Source: a virus
Lineage: Duplodnaviria > Caudoviricetes
DNA length: 24,208 nt
Strand: one strand, 5' to 3'
IMG/VR virus record: IMGVR_UViG_3300017706_001625
Coordinates: 1 to 24,208 of that record
The translations under genes were made by a program, and so were the position numbers. Within the stretch, counting starts at the first letter, position 1, and each line of letters begins with the position of its first letter. Below are positions 8,176 to 16,821 of the stretch, one piece after another. The notes beneath the pieces were generated by a model. The model searched no databases, had not been told where the DNA came from, and saw nothing but the letters and a program-made list of their open reading frames with translations.

Positions 8176-11100
8176 ATGGCTGAGTACGAAATCTCTCACC
8201 CCCGTATTCCACAAATCGGAAACACTGTCCTCGAAGGGCCGGACGATTTACCCCCGCCTACAGAGCAAGATTTTTGGAATGTGGTTCAGCAACAAGTTCG
8301 GCCTATAGGACTTTCCCAGTTGACTGATGAGGAGAAGATTTCCGCATACAAAAATGGATACTTCGATGAACCTGAACCGGTAGAAGGTCAACCCGAACAA
8401 CCTGGCATGGTTGACAGTCTGCTTGACTTAGGCGGTAAGGCTGTACTTCGAGGGTCGCAGATGGCCAATGTATTAACTGCCGGCACTATTGGACACTCCG
8501 GTCCATACGATAAACTTTTAAAACTCGAAGACGAAGCAGTCTCCTACGAAAAAACAGAGAATGCGGATCAATTTCGAGAGGCGGGGAAATACCTTTTTGG
8601 ATTCCTTGACAACACTGAGGAGGAACTAGATTTCGACCCCGTAGCCGAGGCACTCAAGCGAACAGGTATGCCATTCTACTCGAAAAATAAGGATGCCCGT
8701 GGCCGAGTGAAAACAGCCGCTATGGACTATGCACAGGATTCTATGGTTGCCGGAATGGGGGAGGGGTACATCCGAGCCGCCAGCGGTGGAGAGTTTTTGT
8801 ATAAAGGCGGGAAGTTTTTAAAAGATAAGCTCTTTTTAGATGAAGCCGATGACTCCGACATTCTTGACTATGTAAATTCTGCAATTGAGTTTGATGCGTT
8901 AAATCATCGTTATGAAAATTCAGCCGAATTGGCGGCCTTTGTCTTAGAAAATCCACAGGAATCCGTAAAAGCAATGGGGGCGGGATTAGTAGGAGGATTA
9001 ACCCCAATTGTTGAGGCGGAAGACTTGAACGAAATTCTAATCGACGAGGGAGATATAAACTTGGATTCAGATCTTCAACAGGATATCCGTTCGGGATTCG
9101 TACAGCCCGATGTTGGAGTTTCTTTTCTCTCGGAGGTAGTCGGAGATCCAATGAATTTAGCTGGCGGTACAACAGCCAAAGCGGTAACCGCTCCCCAGCG
9201 AGTTGCATTGTCCGGAAAAATCACACAAACTTTAAACGAGGTTACTAAACTCAACCAGGGCAAGGGCATGGCAATCCGTGCATTAGAGAAATTCCCCGAG
9301 GACTCTTTAATCGCCCAGCGACAAGCAAAGTATTTAGAGGCCGCCAACCAATCACTCGCACAGAAACAAAAAGTCCTAGATAAATATGCTCGTAATTCAA
9401 TGTTCTTACGAATGGCGGCTCAATCATCGCCCGATGAATTATTAAAGGTCGCCGCTCAGAATATTGACACCGCATCCGATGCCGGAAAGGCATCCATGAA
9501 CATGGTATATAATGCCATGAAGCCAAGCGGAAAAATGGGCATCGCCCGCAAAGGAATAGCAATGGGTGCAAGACTAACTCCCGAAATTGCTGGGGCAACT
9601 ATCGGTGCATCTTTGGCCGGTCCCGAGGGCGCGGCAGTTGGTGCTATTACCCCATCCTTGATAAAGGCGGCAAAAATAGTTTCCACCATGCCGGAAAATG
9701 TAGCGATATCTTATATTATGAGATCCGCCACAGAAGCGGGGGAGGAGATAACCGAACAGGCGGCAAGGAAGCAATGGAGGGGGATCACAAAATACTTATA
9801 TCCTTCGGGAATTTTAGGGATCGGAATTGGTTCTGCTTCGGAGGGGAGAGAGGAGGGTGGAACTAATCCTTTGTTAAAGTTTGGGGCCGCAGCATTGGGT
9901 TTAAAAGCTTTACCAAAAATTGCCAAATTTGCCGATGCCGCAATAAGGGATAGTCGAGTAATTGGGCCGGAATTAATTTATGCGAGAGGGTCAGAGGCTA
10001 GTCCGTTCTTTAATAGGCTGGCATTGTTACCATCGGGTGAGGAAGGATTAATCGGAGCTAATGCTGACCGCTTTCAGGCACTCACTCGGACATCTAGTGG
10101 CGAGACTTTATTAGAGAAAGCGATTGATAAGGTCAGACCAATGGGCCGAGGGATCGCAACATCGATTAAAGATGAAGTACCGCTTTCCGAGGGGGCAAGA
10201 AATTTAATAAATAAAATACCGGGTTTCGATAGCGTACAAGGTAAAACCGGCGCACCCTTTCGACCAGGGCTTAGTGACACCAATAAAATGCTTTCCAACC
10301 CAACAAGGAAAGCCGCCCAGTTCTTGGATCGCAATCCGGCACTTGGACGGAGTATCGAAACACTCGGGCGATTTGGTGCTGTGGTAACTGCGGGGTCAAC
10401 TTTACCCGCCGCCTTTGGTTATGTTGGGTCGGGCGGACAAGCAGAAGGTGCGATTGCCGGAGCATTAGTATCTGCTCCATTTACATCAATCGGTGCGGGT
10501 GCTGGGATGTTTCAAGCGTACAAAAATAAGAGCGATTTATTTCAGCAAAAGATGGGCGATGTTTATTACTATCGGGAACATCTCAATAAAAGTGAACAGG
10601 CTGACTTTGATAAGTTGCCGATGGAAGCGCGTATGGGATTAGCGGGTTACAGTTTGTCGCATCCCGATATTCTTTTTAAGCCCTTACCGGCGGACAAAAT
10701 GGAGGGACAAGGGAACTGGTCATTTGATGAAAATACTGGGACTTCAGTTGTACAATTTGATAAAGATACGGGGGCTGGATTAGTCGAGGGAGTTTTAGCC
10801 CATGAGGTCGGACATCACATCGAAATTCACGGGCTTACCCCAATGGTCAATAAAATATTTTTCGGAGACCAAGTGACCGGCGAGGCGGGAATATATGGGA
10901 AGTTTAATGAAGAAGGCGAAATCGTACCAAACCAGGCGTTTGAGGATTTACGGACTTTATATTTAAACCGACTAACTAAAGACGCTTCTATCAAACCCGA
11001 AAATTTAGATCAGTACCAAGGTAAAGAGGGGAATGAAATAATCGCAAAGGAAATTTTTGCTGAAACTGCCCGAGATTATTTATTGTCGGGGAAGAAAAAT

Positions 11101-14100
11101 AAAGGTAACACGGCAATCGAGAAAATGATTACATCCGCATCGAATGCAATGATGGGAACTTCATTTGTCCGAGACTTTTTGCTGAAGTTTAATTTACCCA
11201 TGAAAGCGGACGGAAAGTTTATTGAGGGCGGCCCGTTTGAAGGTACATTAAAAAGGAATCCGAAACTCTCTAAACTGATCGATCAGTATTATTCTGACAC
11301 CCGTGCTTTGAGACAAAGAGAGATCCAAGGCGACGAAATTACGACACCTGGTTCAGGGCGAGTAGATAAAAAATTATCAGCGGACGGAAGAAGGCCAATC
11401 GGAGGGGACGATTTCGAAAGTTCATTCTCATTGAAAGACCAAAACGATCCGGCGATTAAAGCAAAATTAGACACCGGTGGAATCTTTAAATGGAGACCAA
11501 CAGCAGACGGAAAAGGATCGGAATTAGAGACTGGTGCGACTGGTACTCCGAAGCGATATACTGCGGGGGAATTAAAGAAAGAACAGAGACTACAGGGTGA
11601 CCATGCTATTAAAGTTTTCGAGGACAATGGAATAGAAATTATTACTAATAAGGACGGAAAGAAATCGACAGGAGATATTACAAATTTAACCTCCAAAATG
11701 ATTGACGAATTGGCGGCTGGTCCGTGGCATCCTCGTCAGATTCAAACACTCCGAGAAATCAGTCGATCATTACGAGAAGGTGATGGAGAAAGAGCGGGAT
11801 TTTTAATTGGATATTTTGCCGCCTCTAGTGGCAGAAAACCGAAGGCCGTACCATTCACTTTGAGGCAAGAAATGCCATACGGATTTAAGCTCACAAATGA
11901 TGGAAATATCCTTGTCCTTTTACACGATGTTCCGCAACTCGAAAAAAATCTTAAATTCTTAAAAGGGGGCAAGAGATTGCCAGGTAAATACAGAGACGAA
12001 TATAATCAACTTTTTGACAACGATACAGAAGTTTGGAAAGCATTTCAGCAGTACAGAATTAACACCGCAAATGGCATGGATGGACAGCTTGGATTAGACG
12101 ATGATCCAGCCCGAGCAATGCGTAAGAAAAATTTCTTAAATTCATTGCATGGGGCGATAGATAAAGAGCATATAAAACTAAACCCGGTTTTACTTGAAAT
12201 AAGTAATATTAAGGGCATGGATATGTTCAATCCAAAAAAGACAAGTCCGTTCGGTCCAGCGACTAAAACCTTTCGACTAGATCGCATTTTTGATGTCACT
12301 AGATCGGGTAATAGAAACTCGAATGTAAACCTTGATCGAGTAAGAACATTACTAATGCCTCGTCAGTCTAAAAACTATGATAAAAAAGTAGCACTTAGAA
12401 CTAACGATAGTTTAATCGAATTAGTAGATAAAATAGCGAACGAAGAAGGAGTCTCTAGAAACGATGTTTTGAATCGGATTTTGCAAGAGAAATTTAGTCC
12501 CGAAGAAATTAAAACACCGGACTCGGAAAATGTTCCACCATCACCAAGAAAAGAATCTCAAAATTTATCTGAACCAACATTAAAAAAACCTTGGTCCGAG
12601 GACAGCGATCAAAGTTTAAACTGGTTGCAAAATGACCCGAATAAAAAACTTTTTATGCCCGCTGAAAGTGTCGAACAAAGACGGGCAAATAAATATGGTC
12701 AAAAGCTTCAAGAAGCAACTTTGTCAGACAAACAAATTATTGCAGAAGCAAGACGGGATTGGATGGAGAATGGATTCAAGGCCGAGAACTTTCAGGCATG
12801 GATGTCCGGTGGAATTGAACGGCCAATTTTAGCCAATGAAAAGGATGGTTTCTACGAGCCTATAAAACTATATTATGGTGGGCCTTTGGGCATGGCAAAA
12901 CGCCCCGGCTTTAATGCCGCCGCCCCGTTAGAAATTTTACAGAAATCAGAATTTTCTGAGGGAGTAACAAAAAAGGCCACTGATCAGTATAAATCGGATA
13001 AAACAATCGTATTAACTGATAGTAAGAAACTCGCAAAAGCTGAACAGGATGCCACCGCAGAAGGGGGTAAACCATTAGAGTTTGCAACCAACGCAAGCTT
13101 TATATTTGACCCCGCTGTTCCGCAACATATTGAACTGCTTAAAAATTCAATCGAACGAGTAGAACCTGACTCTCCGGAAATTCAAAATATCGACAGGTTG
13201 AAAAATAATCCCGATGATACTTTTGCCTACGAAGATCTTTTGAAAAAAGCCGGTTGGGATGGGTACAAAATTGACAATAAGGATGGTGTGGGATATGCCA
13301 TTTTTGACGCTAAAAAAGTGAAGCTAATATCCGACCAGGCGGGTGAAGGAAAGTTCTTTACAAAAGACCGGCCTTATGGAAAAGTTTCCGGCCTCTTTGG
13401 CCGACCACTTCCATCGGATCGAATGAGTGCGATGGGGCAAAGTGAGCGGGGTAGGGATGTCCGATTCATGCCTCAAATGGAAATGGATTTTGACGGCAAA
13501 AGTAAGACTACTAGGCCGACTGAACAACCCTCGCAAGGTATATCCTTTTGGAAGCTTTTTGGCATAGATAAAAATGATAAACAAGTATATAAAAAAGTAG
13601 CTGAAAAACTTATCAATACTGGTAGCCCGGATATGGACCCGCAGACCGCTTTAGACTATGGTCCGAGGCTCGGTTTAAATACCAAAAGACTTCGCCAAGA
13701 AATGCGACTGGCGCAAAAAAGAAATAGTTCATCCGGTAAATATTTTTTACCTAAATTACCGACTTATAAAAAAGATGGAAAAACCTTTAAAATCCCATTG
13801 CCTCCAACCAGCCCCGATGCGCCAAGAGCATACCACGGTTCGAAGAAAAAATATGGCTATCCAGATGAAAAATATTTAGGCGATTTTACAAAAAATTTGG
13901 GGTACATAGGAATGGGTTATTATGGCCACCCGAAACGCATCGATGCAGAAATGTATGCAGTCTCGGAAAGCAAAAGTTTATACAGCTTCGAAATGCTCCC
14001 TGAAGGCCAAACTATGGACTCTCATTTACCAGTCGGCGAACAACACCCAAGCATCAAAAAAAATCTAAAAAAATTATTCGAAACTAAGGTCAGCGGAACC

Positions 14101-15123
14101 GGTCAAAATTTAAAAGATTTATGGGCTAAATTTTACACCGAAAACCCCACCCGATATGTTGACGAAATGTTGCGATCCGATAATGATATTTATGGGGGGC
14201 AGATCAACCCCGAAATCAACAAAAATATCGGTAATAAAATTTACATGGGCTTAGTAAATCTATACTCGAAAAATCCTGTCGAAACAGTGGGCTACCTCGC
14301 TAATAGTCCAGACAATATCGCCGCCGCTTCAACAGTAAATAAAATTCTAGCCAAAAATAATATCAAAGGAGCAATTTCATCTCCACATGAAGGGCCTGGT
14401 GGCCGGCAAGTTTCACCCGAAGTCGTAGTCTTTGATTTTAATGAAATTAGAGATTTTCGAAGTGAGGGAAATAAACTTTTCATGCCAGCCTCCGAAGCGG
14501 GTGCGACTAAGGGGAAGGTGGCCGAGGCCGCAAAGCTATGGAATGAGAAGGGGATTGATTCGCCATACTTTAAGAAGTGGTTCGGCAAGTCCAAGGTAGT
14601 CGATGAGAACGGCGAGCCGTTGGTGGTTTATCATGGGAGTAAAGCAGATTTTACCGAGTTTAAAAGGTCAAAGGGGGGCGAATTTGGATCAGGAATGTAT
14701 TTCTCTGATAACATTGATTCGGCAAAAATGTTTGGAAGTTTTCAAAAAGGGGACTCGGAAGTTGTCACAATGCCGGTCTATTTAACTTTAAAGAATCCAT
14801 TGATTACCAACGATAGAAATGTCCCAAGGGGTGCGGGGATCAAATCTCTAATTAAAAAAGGATATGACGGAGTAATTGGGACTACACCAAACGGGCAAAA
14901 GCAATACATCGCCTTCTCCCCCGAACAAATCAAATCGGCCACCGGCAACCGAGGGACTTTCGATGCGGGGGAGAGGAATATAAACTATATGCCTTCAGAC
15001 CCCAAAGCCCCAAAGGCTCAACCCGCCAATCGCATCCAACAGCAAGCACCAGCTATGCCTGGTAATCGCTTCATGGCTCCAGCCGCAAGTGCCGGATCGA
15101 AGTTATCGGAAAGATTTCGGTAA
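8176..15123 (+). CDS. Giant internal virion / polyvalent protein: membrane-like Gly/Ala segments, zincin HExxH motif, RHH domain and three ADP-ribosyltransferase-like (ART-PolyVal-type) modules
   Basis: 2315 aa; HEVGH at 10801-10815 with downstream EIFAE at 11050; FKKWFGKSKVVDENGEPLVVYHGS...GMYFS...VYL.LKNP...GYDGVI...AFSPEQIKSATGNRGTFD in the last module; AYHGS at 13828; last gene of the virion operon. Confidence 0.8.
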   Translation: MAEYEISHPRIPQIGNTVLEGPDDLPPPTEQDFWNVVQQQVRPIGLSQLTDEEKISAYKNGYFDEPEPVEGQPEQPGMVDSLLDLGGKAVLRGSQMANVLTAGTIGHSGPYDKLLKLEDEAVSYEKTENADQFREAGKYLFGFLDNTEEELDFDPVAEALKRTGMPFYSKNKDARGRVKTAAMDYAQDSMVAGMGEGYIRAASGGEFLYKGGKFLKDKLFLDEADDSDILDYVNSAIEFDALNHRYENSAELAAFVLENPQESVKAMGAGLVGGLTPIVEAEDLNEILIDEGDINLDSDLQQDIRSGFVQPDVGVSFLSEVVGDPMNLAGGTTAKAVTAPQRVALSGKITQTLNEVTKLNQGKGMAIRALEKFPEDSLIAQRQAKYLEAANQSLAQKQKVLDKYARNSMFLRMAAQSSPDELLKVAAQNIDTASDAGKASMNMVYNAMKPSGKMGIARKGIAMGARLTPEIAGATIGASLAGPEGAAVGAITPSLIKAAKIVSTMPENVAISYIMRSATEAGEEITEQAARKQWRGITKYLYPSGILGIGIGSASEGREEGGTNPLLKFGAAALGLKALPKIAKFADAAIRDSRVIGPELIYARGSEASPFFNRLALLPSGEEGLIGANADRFQALTRTSSGETLLEKAIDKVRPMGRGIATSIKDEVPLSEGARNLINKIPGFDSVQGKTGAPFRPGLSDTNKMLSNPTRKAAQFLDRNPALGRSIETLGRFGAVVTAGSTLPAAFGYVGSGGQAEGAIAGALVSAPFTSIGAGAGMFQAYKNKSDLFQQKMGDVYYYREHLNKSEQADFDKLPMEARMGLAGYSLSHPDILFKPLPADKMEGQGNWSFDENTGTSVVQFDKDTGAGLVEGVLAHEVGHHIEIHGLTPMVNKIFFGDQVTGEAGIYGKFNEEGEIVPNQAFEDLRTLYLNRLTKDASIKPENLDQYQGKEGNEIIAKEIFAETARDYLLSGKKNKGNTAIEKMITSASNAMMGTSFVRDFLLKFNLPMKADGKFIEGGPFEGTLKRNPKLSKLIDQYYSDTRALRQREIQGDEITTPGSGRVDKKLSADGRRPIGGDDFESSFSLKDQNDPAIKAKLDTGGIFKWRPTADGKGSELETGATGTPKRYTAGELKKEQRLQGDHAIKVFEDNGIEIITNKDGKKSTGDITNLTSKMIDELAAGPWHPRQIQTLREISRSLREGDGERAGFLIGYFAASSGRKPKAVPFTLRQEMPYGFKLTNDGNILVLLHDVPQLEKNLKFLKGGKRLPGKYRDEYNQLFDNDTEVWKAFQQYRINTANGMDGQLGLDDDPARAMRKKNFLNSLHGAIDKEHIKLNPVLLEISNIKGMDMFNPKKTSPFGPATKTFRLDRIFDVTRSGNRNSNVNLDRVRTLLMPRQSKNYDKKVALRTNDSLIELVDKIANEEGVSRNDVLNRILQEKFSPEEIKTPDSENVPPSPRKESQNLSEPTLKKPWSEDSDQSLNWLQNDPNKKLFMPAESVEQRRANKYGQKLQEATLSDKQIIAEARRDWMENGFKAENFQAWMSGGIERPILANEKDGFYEPIKLYYGGPLGMAKRPGFNAAAPLEILQKSEFSEGVTKKATDQYKSDKTIVLTDSKKLAKAEQDATAEGGKPLEFATNASFIFDPAVPQHIELLKNSIERVEPDSPEIQNIDRLKNNPDDTFAYEDLLKKAGWDGYKIDNKDGVGYAIFDAKKVKLISDQAGEGKFFTKDRPYGKVSGLFGRPLPSDRMSAMGQSERGRDVRFMPQMEMDFDGKSKTTRPTEQPSQGISFWKLFGIDKNDKQVYKKVAEKLINTGSPDMDPQTALDYGPRLGLNTKRLRQEMRLAQKRNSSSGKYFLPKLPTYKKDGKTFKIPLPPTSPDAPRAYHGSKKKYGYPDEKYLGDFTKNLGYIGMGYYGHPKRIDAEMYAVSESKSLYSFEMLPEGQTMDSHLPVGEQHPSIKKNLKKLFETKVSGTGQNLKDLWAKFYTENPTRYVDEMLRSDNDIYGGQINPEINKNIGNKIYMGLVNLYSKNPVETVGYLANSPDNIAAASTVNKILAKNNIKGAISSPHEGPGGRQVSPEVVVFDFNEIRDFRSEGNKLFMPASEAGATKGKVAEAAKLWNEKGIDSPYFKKWFGKSKVVDENGEPLVVYHGSKADFTEFKRSKGGEFGSGMYFSDNIDSAKMFGSFQKGDSEVVTMPVYLTLKNPLITNDRNVPRGAGIKSLIKKGYDGVIGTTPNGQKQYIAFSPEQIKSATGNRGTFDAGERNINYMPSDPKAPKAQPANRIQQQAPAMPGNRFMAPAASAGSKLSERFR
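12349..15081 (+). repeat. Dispersed peptide linker repeat [FYL]-[ML]-P (seven copies) within the giant ORF
   Basis: LLMP 12349, KLFMP 12646, RFMP 13462, KYFLP 13738, KLFMP 14473, NYMP 14983, RFMAP 15067; copies fall at apparent domain boundaries. Confidence 0.7.
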
Positions 15124-15124
15124 T

Positions 15125-15367
15125 CTATTCCCGCTCAATTTCCTCAATGTAAAAATCTCCGACCTCTCGCATCAACTTTGCTAGTAAGGCGGGATCATTA
15201 CCAGGAGGATCGATAAAGGTAGGGTCGAATGTTTCGCCATCTTCTGATTCTATCAGTTCAGCTATAAACTTTGGACTATGGAGGTGAACAACGAATGTCC
15301 GATCCTCTGTATCGCCGATGATAAACTTTGGGAACTTTGCCTCGAATGAATTAGGATCGTTAACCAT
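15125..15367 (-). CDS. Small acidic hypothetical protein, the only credible minus-strand gene
   Basis: Occupies sequence with no + strand gene; stop abuts the giant ORF stop with a 1-nt gap; ATG at 15367 preferred over TTG at 15373. Confidence 0.7.
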   Translation of the reverse strand: MVNDPNSFEAKFPKFIIGDTEDRTFVVHLHSPKFIAELIESEDGETFDPTFIDPPGNDPALLAKLMREVGDFYIEEIERE

Positions 15368-15472
15368 TCCCAATTAAATAACCCAAAGCTACATGAGTAA
15401 AGTATTAACAGCCTCCCATTTCTTTCGCTAACCCTTGCCTTAGAATTAGTCTATTTTATAGCAATTTAGTCC

Positions 15473-15526: not shown

Positions 15527-15928
15527 ATGAGAAAAGGTACTAAAAAATGGATAAATGACTTAAGTTGCACTTTATACTATAAGGGCGAAAATCGTAAGTG
15601 TTTTGCGCAAGATTTTCGTCATATGAGATTAAAGCTTCCCGAAGCGGTCCATCGGAAGTGGAAATTATGGTGCAACATGAATAGTGACAGCTTGGAACAA
15701 ATCAGTCAGAATGAATGGCATGGCTACACAGTCTGTGCAACTGGCGAACGAATTAACTACACCATCATTGACCGCAAGGAGAAGGTTAAAGAGGCGGCTA
15801 GGCTTTTGGGTCAGGTTGGCGGCCAAGCTGGATATGGGAAGAAAAAAGTTCGAGGAGATTCAAATTATTACCGCTTACTCCGAGCTAAAAGAACGATAAA
15901 AGAGTCAAAGAAAAATAGGAAAAAATGA
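15527..15928 (+). CDS. Basic hypothetical protein with KGG-like C-terminal motif; possible nucleic-acid binder
   Basis: RBS AAGGA, 133 aa; C-terminal EAARLLGQVGGQAGYGKKKVRGDSNYYRLLRAKR. Confidence 0.65.
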   Translation: MRKGTKKWINDLSCTLYYKGENRKCFAQDFRHMRLKLPEAVHRKWKLWCNMNSDSLEQISQNEWHGYTVCATGERINYTIIDRKEKVKEAARLLGQVGGQAGYGKKKVRGDSNYYRLLRAKRTIKESKKNRKK

Positions 15929-15977: not shown

Positions 15978-16006
15978 TTGACATGATCCGATTTATTCCA
16001 TTTAAA
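15978..16006 (+). promoter_or_regulatory. Putative sigma70-type promoter for the replication operon leader
   Basis: Perfect TTGACA at 15978-15983 preceded by A/T tracts; -10 is weak (TTTAAA at 17-nt spacing). Confidence 0.4.
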
Positions 16007-16061
16007 AGCATTATTCAACCAGTGGATGGGTTGAAGTTGATCTTTAAAATTCTAAATAACT

Positions 16062-16186
16062 ACCGGTTGGCGCATATTCTGTTTCGCCCTATATGCATTA
16101 CGGGTTTATTTCGACATAAATAGTCAGTAAATAGACCTTAGTTTTTCCAGCCGGTTTTAACATTAACCGGCAAAATGGAAAAACTA
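16062..16186 (+). ncRNA. Structured cis-regulatory leader RNA with alternative folds
   Basis: Manual pairing: P1 16062-70/16147-55, P2 16072-77/16091-96, P3 16102-11/16129-38; competing hairpin 16139-49/16176-86 plus 16150-56/16165-71 covering ATG 16175; G-U pairs favour the + strand. Confidence 0.55.
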
Positions 16187-16366
16187 CTAAACCAATATCA
16201 CAACTTATTCCTCACCAAGAGTGAGGTCAAAGAGATTTTCAGATTAAATTCTGACAAGGCTCTCAATGCTTTTAAGCGAGAGTTTGGCATTCGGAAAAGA
16301 GGCCAGCACTATCTTGCTTCCGATGTTAAAAAAGTAATTGCCATCTTTTCCGAGGAGGCCGCATGA
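16175..16366 (+). CDS. Excisionase/AlpA-like small winged-HTH DNA-binding protein
   Basis: 63 aa, basic; FLTKSEVKEIFRL...RGQHYLASDVKKVI pattern; ATGA overlap with the next gene. Confidence 0.6.
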   Translation: MEKLLNQYHNLFLTKSEVKEIFRLNSDKALNAFKREFGIRKRGQHYLASDVKKVIAIFSEEAA

Positions 16367-16821
16367 AATTGACCATCGGAATTGATCCAGGTAAGTCAGG
16401 CGGCTACGCAATCGCTTGGGGCGGGATGCACGATATTAAACTGCATTCCATCGGGGAGGACTTCGAATTTGTTGAGCACATCCAAGATCTTCAAGACCAT
16501 CCAATTGTCACCTCAATTGAAGCGGTGGTTGAATTGGTCCCGCCTTTTGCCGGCAAGATGATTCCTTCGAGTAGCTCATTCAAATTAGGCAAATCATGTG
16601 GCTTTCTTGAAGGGGTACTTCGGATGGCCGAAATTCCATTTACTTTAGTCCGCCCACAGGAATGGCAAAAAGGATTAAGTGGATTGACTAAGTTAACCTC
16701 GGGAAAACGAAAGAAGGTTTTGGCCAACCATGCCAAGCAATTCTTTCCATCGACTAAAGGGATTACCCTCAAGACAGCCGATGCGATCCTCATTTTAAGA
16801 CACTTTCTTATTAATCAATAA
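16363..16821 (+). CDS. RuvC-like Holliday junction resolvase (phage type)
   Basis: IGIDPGKSGG, AVVE, VRPQEWQK, ADAILI: RNase H-fold acidic residues in the RuvC arrangement. Confidence 0.85.
   Translation: MKLTIGIDPGKSGGYAIAWGGMHDIKLHSIGEDFEFVEHIQDLQDHPIVTSIEAVVELVPPFAGKMIPSSSSFKLGKSCGFLEGVLRMAEIPFTLVRPQEWQKGLSGLTKLTSGKRKKVLANHAKQFFPSTKGITLKTADAILILRHFLINQ

Follow-up and report, generated by a model that had tools for sequence, protein, structure and literature searches.

A two-state leader RNA in front of the replication genes of a tailed phage carries a dif-like site in the loop of its outer helix and may be switched by Xer integration

The leader and its genomic context

For the leader RNA in front of the replication genes of this virus two alternative folds have been drawn, one of which buries the first start codon of the operon. 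This raises the questions of whether both folds exist in related phages and which input might decide between them. As an answer we propose, with a confidence a little above even, that the leader is a two-state RNA which encloses a partial copy of the dif site of the likely host in its outer helix and is switched by Xer integration.

The window, i.e. the whole 24.2-kb virus record analysed here, comprises tail and virion genes, the gene of a 2315-aa protein and a co-directional replication block of resolvase, replication-initiation-like, exonuclease, methyltransferase, DNA polymerase A and kinase genes. The leader lies in the 246 nt that separate a 133-aa gene from the 63-aa gene at the head of the replication block, where the following features were assigned:

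15527..15928, + strand: 133-aa gene, on the XerC side of the dif-like site, without known family
15978..16005, + strand: candidate promoter with TTGACA at 15978-15983, from an alignment of 35 leaders
16014..16049, + strand: small hairpin (16014-16035) and conserved TCTTT element (16038-16049)
16062..16070, + strand: 5' strand of P1 (ON strand), from folding and covariation; integration would remove it from the operon
16072-16077 / 16091-16096, + strand: P2 as drawn in the preliminary description (GCAUAU / AUAUGC), present in the window
16081..16108, + strand: dif-like site and candidate attP, with XerC arm (16081-16091), centre (16092-16097) and XerD side (16098-16108)
16102..16138, + strand: P3 hairpin, which is paired in the window but differs in register and length between relatives
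16139..16155, + strand: U-rich run and 3' strand of P1 (16147-16155), the switching strand common to both folds
16165..16186, + strand: anti-P1 strand (16165-16171), AUG 16175 and the A-rich strand that extends the OFF hairpin
16175..16366, + strand: 63-aa gene, starting at AUG 16175; no Shine-Dalgarno motif is visible upstream of the AUG
16363..16821, + strand: Holliday junction resolvase gene, with an ATGA overlap with the stop codon of the 63-aa gene

The TTGACA of the candidate promoter was detected at the equivalent place in most relatives, with a weak and variable -10 box (35 leaders aligned); a consensus promoter scan did not list this promoter. Downstream of it, the stem of the small hairpin differs between relatives yet stays paired, and its purine-rich loop and the TCTTT element are kept in most of them. 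The hairpin and the TCTTT element may be a boxB/boxA-like antitermination signal for the long operon.

The 63-aa protein is likely a MerR/excisionase-like winged helix, although the scores are weak: the best fold match of its model (pLDDT 81.7) was BldC with a probability of 0.89 but an E-value of 0.48, and HTH_17 was detected in one distant homologue with an E-value of 0.015, below the cut-off. Behind the resolvase gene follow the replication-initiation-like, exonuclease, methyltransferase and DNA polymerase A genes. The search against cultured phages returned only distant resolvases, which are 28-35% identical among the matches listed.

Family and atlas searches and a search of a limited fold library gave no match for the 133-aa protein. 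Its C-terminal half resembles a chromosomal protein of about 60 aa that was found, with weak E-values, in 17 of 401 Opitutales genomes, and the 133-aa protein is regarded as a candidate regulator or Xer helper. The chromosomal relative (L206-L222) is basic and without known family, and in most of the 17 matches its gene lies near genes labelled, from the sequence alone, as obgE-like GTPase genes. Further upstream, the 2315-aa protein (8176-15123) carries an ART-PolyVal ADP-ribosyltransferase domain near its C-terminus and is probably injected from the virion. An 82-aa acidic protein without known family is encoded at 15125-15373 on the - strand and is conserved even in the distant relative G008.

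Two mutually exclusive folds and their covariation

In fold A the leader is closed by P1, which encloses P2 and P3, whereas fold B replaces P1 by a hairpin over the start codon, the inner 7 bp of which pair GCCGGUU (16150-16156) with AACCGGC (16165-16171). All ten helix arms of the two folds lie where the preliminary description had placed them, and its three wobble pairs are indeed G-U on the + strand, one in P1 and two in P3. The leader region is far more stable than its shuffles: positions 16040-16200 yielded -43.8 kcal/mol (z = -5.69), with none of 200 shuffles as good. On 16062-16186 fold A amounts to -30.8 and fold B to -39.9 kcal/mol. Being about 9 kcal/mol more stable, fold B is expected to dominate the full-length RNA at equilibrium, and P1 reaches a probability of 1.0 only on transcripts up to about 16165, before the anti-P1 strand. 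The sequence had not been recognised as a known family, and Rfam gave no match in the window (four rows at chance level, none at E <= 10 in 301 bases). For ten relatives no Rfam match at E <= 1 was obtained apart from one chance-level row.

Searches with the 63-aa protein and the resolvase yielded 104 viral loci. Among these loci and the window, 39 were without the core motif (see below) in the stretch tested; five of these were too short, and in the remaining loci without the motif other genes precede the resolvase gene. The loci with the core motif gave 35 distinct leaders. Motif scans added three viral and 17 metagenome leaders, resulting in 54 distinct leaders in all. The metagenome rows are biased towards structure since the search pattern required the 3' arm and the anti-arm; the 37-row alignment used for the pair counts is mostly protein-anchored.

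In this 37-row alignment 90.3% of the 350 P1 cells are paired, and seven of the ten pairs have changes on both sides. None of 500 shuffles was as high, and slid controls, which matter because related sequences can beat shuffles, were 23-55% paired. Furthermore, G-U pairs on the + strand make up 37 of the 350 cells, which is what an RNA helix would show. The anti-P1 helix was assessed in 45 haplotypes, where the strands with their own partners gave -13.3 kcal/mol versus -11.3 kcal/mol with permuted partners, a value reached in none of 2000 permutations. The 5' arm, 3' arm and anti-arm change together, as in CTCGG/CCGAG/TCGGC, CCTCGG/CGAGG/ACCTC and GACAGG/CTGTC/GACAG. P1 and the competing hairpin over the start codon are thus both real and covary among the 54 distinct leaders. 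This supports the preliminary description in that two mutually exclusive folds expose or bury AUG 16175; they are conserved and covary in three strands. The helix length on the + versus the - strand (10.7 vs 7.3) was not used as proof, since this comparison is biased by helices having been found with G-U allowed.

The details of both folds are conserved to different degrees. Of the three-way junction, P1 is retained with compensatory changes, whereas the 6-bp partner of P2 occurs in only 15 of the 54 leaders. Similarly, the inner 7-bp hairpin of fold B is conserved with compensatory changes but its AUG-covering helix has the originally described 11 bp in only two of the 54 leaders; it reaches at least 6 bp in 46 of them, both being counts without a control. 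The interior with P2 and P3 folds differently from relative to relative. An ACA in the loop region of P3 is nearly invariant.

A dif-like site within P1

The sole long conserved stretch within P1 is TCGCACAA-TATGCA-TTAY. Its counterpart was recognised through a recombinase gene in one of the phages. A tyrosine recombinase (PF00589) is absent in nine of ten near-complete relatives, and the tenth encodes a xerC-like gene 0.7 kb from the site (312 bits versus an XerC-model cut-off of 335), the product of which has its best genome matches (58-59%) in two Opitutales assemblies. In both assemblies a single exact copy of the core is present, as part of a 28-bp site whose end is TTATGTCTAAT. The xerC-like gene (L002:1257-2222 on the - strand, also in L003 and L012) is inserted between the 82-aa reverse gene and the 133-aa gene, is limited to one sub-clade and is absent from the window.

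Within one Opitutales family 59 of 76 genomes have the host site, each of them once (control 0), as do 67 of 201 genomes of the order (control 1). Its conservation stops at the edges of the 28-bp frame (32 loci), and the GC skew turns from + to - across it in all three long Opitutales contigs tested. From the single copy, the conservation ending at the frame edges and the skew flip we conclude that it is the chromosomal dif; it comprises two 11-bp arms and a 6-bp centre and is present once per chromosome at the terminus defined by GC skew. The assignment of the arms to XerC and XerD is presumed, following the literature on TLC-phi and XafT. The XerD-side arm TTATGTCTAAT resembles the Vibrio consensus as quoted in the accessible text of PMC12715192. 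In all 32 host loci examined an S26 signal-peptidase gene ends upstream of the XerC arm on the same strand, often within a few bases. The dnaA gene lies 130-540 kb from dif in three of five genomes and, in G160, away from the skew-defined origin (G040, G065, G138 and G160 are concerned), and thus could not serve to mark the origin.

Agreement of the 54 phage leaders with the host consensus amounts to 78-100% at positions 3-20 of the 28-bp frame and to 9-30% at positions 24-28. The inner eight bases of the XerC arm are identical in 49 of the 54, and the XerD arm is divergent in all of them, with 4-9 mismatches in 11 positions. The phage centre equals a host variant in 52 of 54 leaders, the other two centres being unseen in hosts: TATGCA, TATACA, TATGTA, TATGGA and TATGCG were counted 38, 11, 7, 2 and 1 times in hosts and 36, 4, 4, 6 and 2 times in the 54 phage leaders. 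TATATA, found in 44 of 67 cases in the wider order, is absent from both the phage leaders and the host family; although the host search patterns specified some positions of the centre, TATATA was compatible with them. The XerC arm of the window, GTTTCGCCCTA, carries two changes from the family consensus that also occur in L006 and L007, next to the centre TATGCA and a degenerate XerD side; due to these two changes the site of the window may recombine poorly.

One good dif-like site was detected per phage genome (5/5), and none in five genomes of sister phages without the leader. The sister clade (L047, L058, L069, L073, L093 and about 30 more loci), whose resolvase is more than 80% identical and preceded by other genes, represents a natural lytic comparison group without dif-like site. 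Apart from these phages, sixteen viral contigs unrelated to the leader carry a full or near-full Opitutales-type dif with both arms (L105, L106, L111, L112, L116, L117, L121 and L123, as well as L126, L136, L137, L140, L144, L146, L147 and L149, the motif being central in each locus), and runs of G or C are frequently no more than about 100 bases away; they possibly represent other Xer-using phages of the same hosts. In L109, L130, L132 and L148 the sites are symmetric, an inverted copy of the XerC-type arm replacing the XerD side.

One of the 76 family genomes holds a 28.5-kb contig of the phage clade, the centre of which equals that genome's own dif; infection, an episome and a binning error are all possible origins of this contig. 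Taken from the sequence matches, the host of the phage clade is likely this one Opitutales (Verrucomicrobiota) family.

The site shares several features with the attP of TLC-phi, which is used in Vibrio cholerae together with XafT, namely a single dif-like site, a host-like XerC arm and centre and a divergent XerD arm, as far as the available text of PMC6744903, 10.1101/2021.09.09.459576 and PMC5357621 describes it. Like the TLC-type IMEX of these sources, most of the phage genomes are without an integrase of their own; a resolvase-type serine recombinase (PF00239) was absent in five of five genomes and the XafT-like domain DUF3653 was found in none of five. However, the present phages are tailed, of about 37 kb and with a Verrucomicrobiota host, and the site lies inside a structured mRNA leader between promoter and replication operon, unlike TLC-phi in the portions of its literature consulted. 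The G at position 5 of the XerD arm, which XafT needs according to the same sources, is kept in only 35 of 54 leaders. As no DUF3653/XafT was found, the site is said to work like a TLC site and is not filed as a TLC member. The double-jelly-roll prophages of dif type, according to the main text of PMC12715192, also have double-stranded DNA genomes and a one-armed dif-like attP that is flanked by small genes, but they are non-tailed and possess a P15/P16 (XafT/repressor) module, and no RNA switch is described for them there. As one good site was found per genome in five of five, assignment to the CTX type was rejected. An attP of CTX type consists of two inverted dif-like sites folding back on one strand.

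Xer integration as the putative switch

The dif-like site in the loop of P1, which the preliminary description does not mention, suggests that the switch responds to DNA recombination rather than to a ligand or antisense RNA; an insertion at dif would cut the switch in half. In the scheme that we infer, host XerC/XerD would insert the phage at dif with the crossover at the centre, which would place host DNA in front of the 3' half of the leader; the promoter, the small hairpin, the TCTTT element and the 5' strand of P1 would end up at the other end of the prophage. Because the peptidase gene ends before the XerC arm on the same strand, host transcription would run into the operon, and a host gene pointing into attL in 32 of 32 loci would provide a reason for a default-OFF fold.

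In the intact leader of the free phage, P1 is predicted by folding to form first and still to hold as the AUG emerges, and this ON window would expose a start codon without Shine-Dalgarno motif to ribosomes. In the half-leader at attL the anti-P1 hairpin is predicted to form before the AUG emerges and to bury it. This OFF fold would prevent the excisionase-like first gene and the genes coupled to it from being translated, silencing the host read-through, and excision would bring back promoter and P1 at the same time. It is further presumed that the block is polar on the remaining operon, that the 63-aa protein acts in excision and that the resolvase completes the XerC-made Holliday junction. 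The 133-aa protein, the phage XerC of the sub-clade and the resolvase are candidates for activating Xer on the poor XerD arm.

Folding of natural leaders, either intact or cut at the XerC arm to give half-leaders (plus L254, see below), is consistent with this scheme. As the AUG emerges, the probability of P1 exceeds 0.5 in 49 of 54 intact leaders and that of the anti-hairpin in 53 of 54 half-leaders, and in all 54 cases fold A leaves the start region more open than the half-leader does. L254 buries the U and G of its AUG. The median refolding barrier is 12 kcal/mol, and 15 nt past the AUG only 17 of 54 full leaders keep P1 at equilibrium, so that the ON state appears to depend on kinetics or on a helper. 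The ON state is therefore predicted to be a kinetic window, which would be shorter in the leader of the analysed record itself, where P1 has a probability of 0.54-0.56 at the AUG.

With respect to integration itself, the core together with the downstream half of the leader was present in 37 metagenome loci, and 36 of these also contain the phage promoter side. The exception, L254, consists of non-phage DNA up to the XerC arm, followed by 90 bases scoring 78 against the nearest phage relative; upstream of the XerC arm the comparison with its twelve closest relatives gave 11-16 of 35. L254 thus looks like the form expected of an attL junction. However, the junction rests on 32 bases at the end of a contig with 3.3x coverage and its flank has no match in the 76 host genomes or the collected loci, and it may therefore be chimeric or stem from a cross with some other element that carries dif. 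An attR was not found in three scans, nor was an attL with the peptidase end; the viral loci contain no junction (0/29), no loose read end was seen at the site among the matches listed (seven runs, as assembled contigs), and no integrated copy was present among the 76 family genomes. The sole phage contig among them has an intact phage site beside an intact host dif. One contig from an RNA library ends near position 16080, but a lone contig end is not informative. Integration at the host dif is considered likely, although L254 is the one attL-like junction and no attR was found.

A site that does not serve integration would fit part of these results. It might resolve dimers of a plasmid-like prophage or act as an XerC roadblock, the two folds then being a kinetic or protein-controlled translation gate on the intact leader. 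The lack of attR next to one weak attL, the intact phage site together with an intact host dif in one genome assembly and two phage records that close with direct terminal repeats favour this explanation, as does ColE1 cer, which produces a 70-nt RNA from Pcer (PMC5357621). We nevertheless regard it as unlikely. Recombination of the phage with itself need not track the host, yet the phage centres mirror five host variants and avoid TATATA, the commonest variant of the wider order. Moreover, a self site with 4-9 of 11 mismatches in the XerD arm would bind XerD poorly on both partners, and the junction form of L254 would not be expected.

Clearly less probable is that the phage integrates at dif but the folds are uncoupled from it, P1 being a processing or antitermination stem or presenting the site in single-stranded DNA, with silencing brought about only by promoter loss or a repressor. 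Promoter loss alone would lower expression, the hairpin and TCTTT element in front of P1 resemble antitermination leaders, and the location of the site between the P1 strands could reflect scarce intergenic space. However, the anti-P1 strand covaries with the switching strand, which a processing stem does not need, and the G-U cells in P1 are those of an RNA. The host gene pointing into attL gives the default-OFF fold a reason, and one good dif-like site per genome is unlike the folded two-site attP of CTX.

The preliminary description had compared the leader with the immunity RNAs P4 CI and P1 C4. Accordingly, a small RNA closed by P1 could be excised and, like P1 C4, P4 CI or IsrK, confer immunity in trans; it may also flip incoming leaders between the folds. 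The stalk, small hairpin, bulge and larger hairpin of the window resemble the three-stem C4 layout (PMC5320573), the long form of IsrK switches between two folds (PMC4825925), and the nearly invariant ACA in the loop region of P3 might have such a role. On the other hand, Rfam yielded only chance-level rows in the window and ten relatives, no complementary site was found at a common position and duplex energies were similar to those of shuffles in 53 leaders; furthermore, dif accounts for the conserved stretch, which lacks the variation expected of a specificity loop. A trans-acting RNA is thus very unlikely, and the likeness to CI and C4 is not supported. Membership in the C4/CI antisense class was rejected, as neither an Rfam match nor three conserved stem-loops nor target-complementary loops were found. 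A 9-nt complement at 15582 was also rejected as an antisense target: it is present in relatives with a different loop and missing at the equivalent place in L006, the loop of which equals that of the window.

A metabolite- or ion-sensing riboswitch with the three-way junction as aptamer, the other reading first suggested, would likewise explain mutually exclusive folds over a start codon, but its interior pairing is not conserved, the conserved bases match the DNA site base for base and Rfam gave no match, so that it is hardly to be believed and the leader was not assigned to the riboswitch class, for which a conserved aptamer structure was missing. Of the earlier proposal that an RNA switch gates the coupled replication genes, the exclusive folds and the ATGA overlap remain, whereas the riboswitch or antisense input does not.

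We therefore return to recombination at dif as the input. That these integrase-less tailed phages, with attP in the loop of the ON helix, possess a recombination-gated RNA switch for which a classical repressor is not needed is a tentative proposal, which we place just short of an even chance. It would mean that the topology of the DNA records whether the phage is lytic or lysogenic and that the folding of the RNA translates this record, a notion we hold to be about as plausible as doubtful, leaning slightly to the latter.

Related principles are known from other phages and plasmids. In mycobacteriophage BPs attP also lies within a control element and integration changes the regulatory state; BPs, however, uses its own integrase, an attP in the repressor gene and the loss of a degradation tag (PMC3694055), whereas here an RNA helix would be cut, the output would be the translation of lytic genes and the recombinase would be that of the host. 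With the site in a non-coding leader and no integrase in nine of ten genomes, the leader was not placed in the BPs class and only works like it. A structured leader in front of phage replication or regulatory genes is shared with P1 C4, P4 CI and IsrK (PMC5320573 and PMC4825925), and IsrK also has two folds and a translationally coupled first ORF. The present leader differs from all three in having no Rfam match, no antisense targets and no conserved interior, and its input appears to be DNA recombination. For ColE1, the Rcd RNA reportedly acts on tryptophanase. At ColE1 cer, too, an Xer site is associated with a promoter and with a structured RNA, but cer resolves plasmid dimers (PMC5357621), whereas here the operon leader would act in cis and its site mimics the host dif. 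No open-access description of an attP within an RNA switch or of Xer use by Opitutales phages was found outside supplements, of which that of PMC12715192 could list further one-armed sites.

Attachment sites exploiting Xer are already known; that the present one amounts to a new kind of switch we judge nearly, though not quite, as probable as its opposite. Tailed marine phages without integrase are normally called lytic. The phage clade described here appears to borrow the Xer system of its host and would be temperate on an uncultured or little-studied family of Verrucomicrobiota, the likely host family being named by the dif mimic itself. If true, a site inside a covarying two-state leader represents a minimal lysis-lysogeny circuit, in which recombination decides on the folding of the mRNA, and a site between the strands of an ON helix may serve as a rule for finding similar switches.
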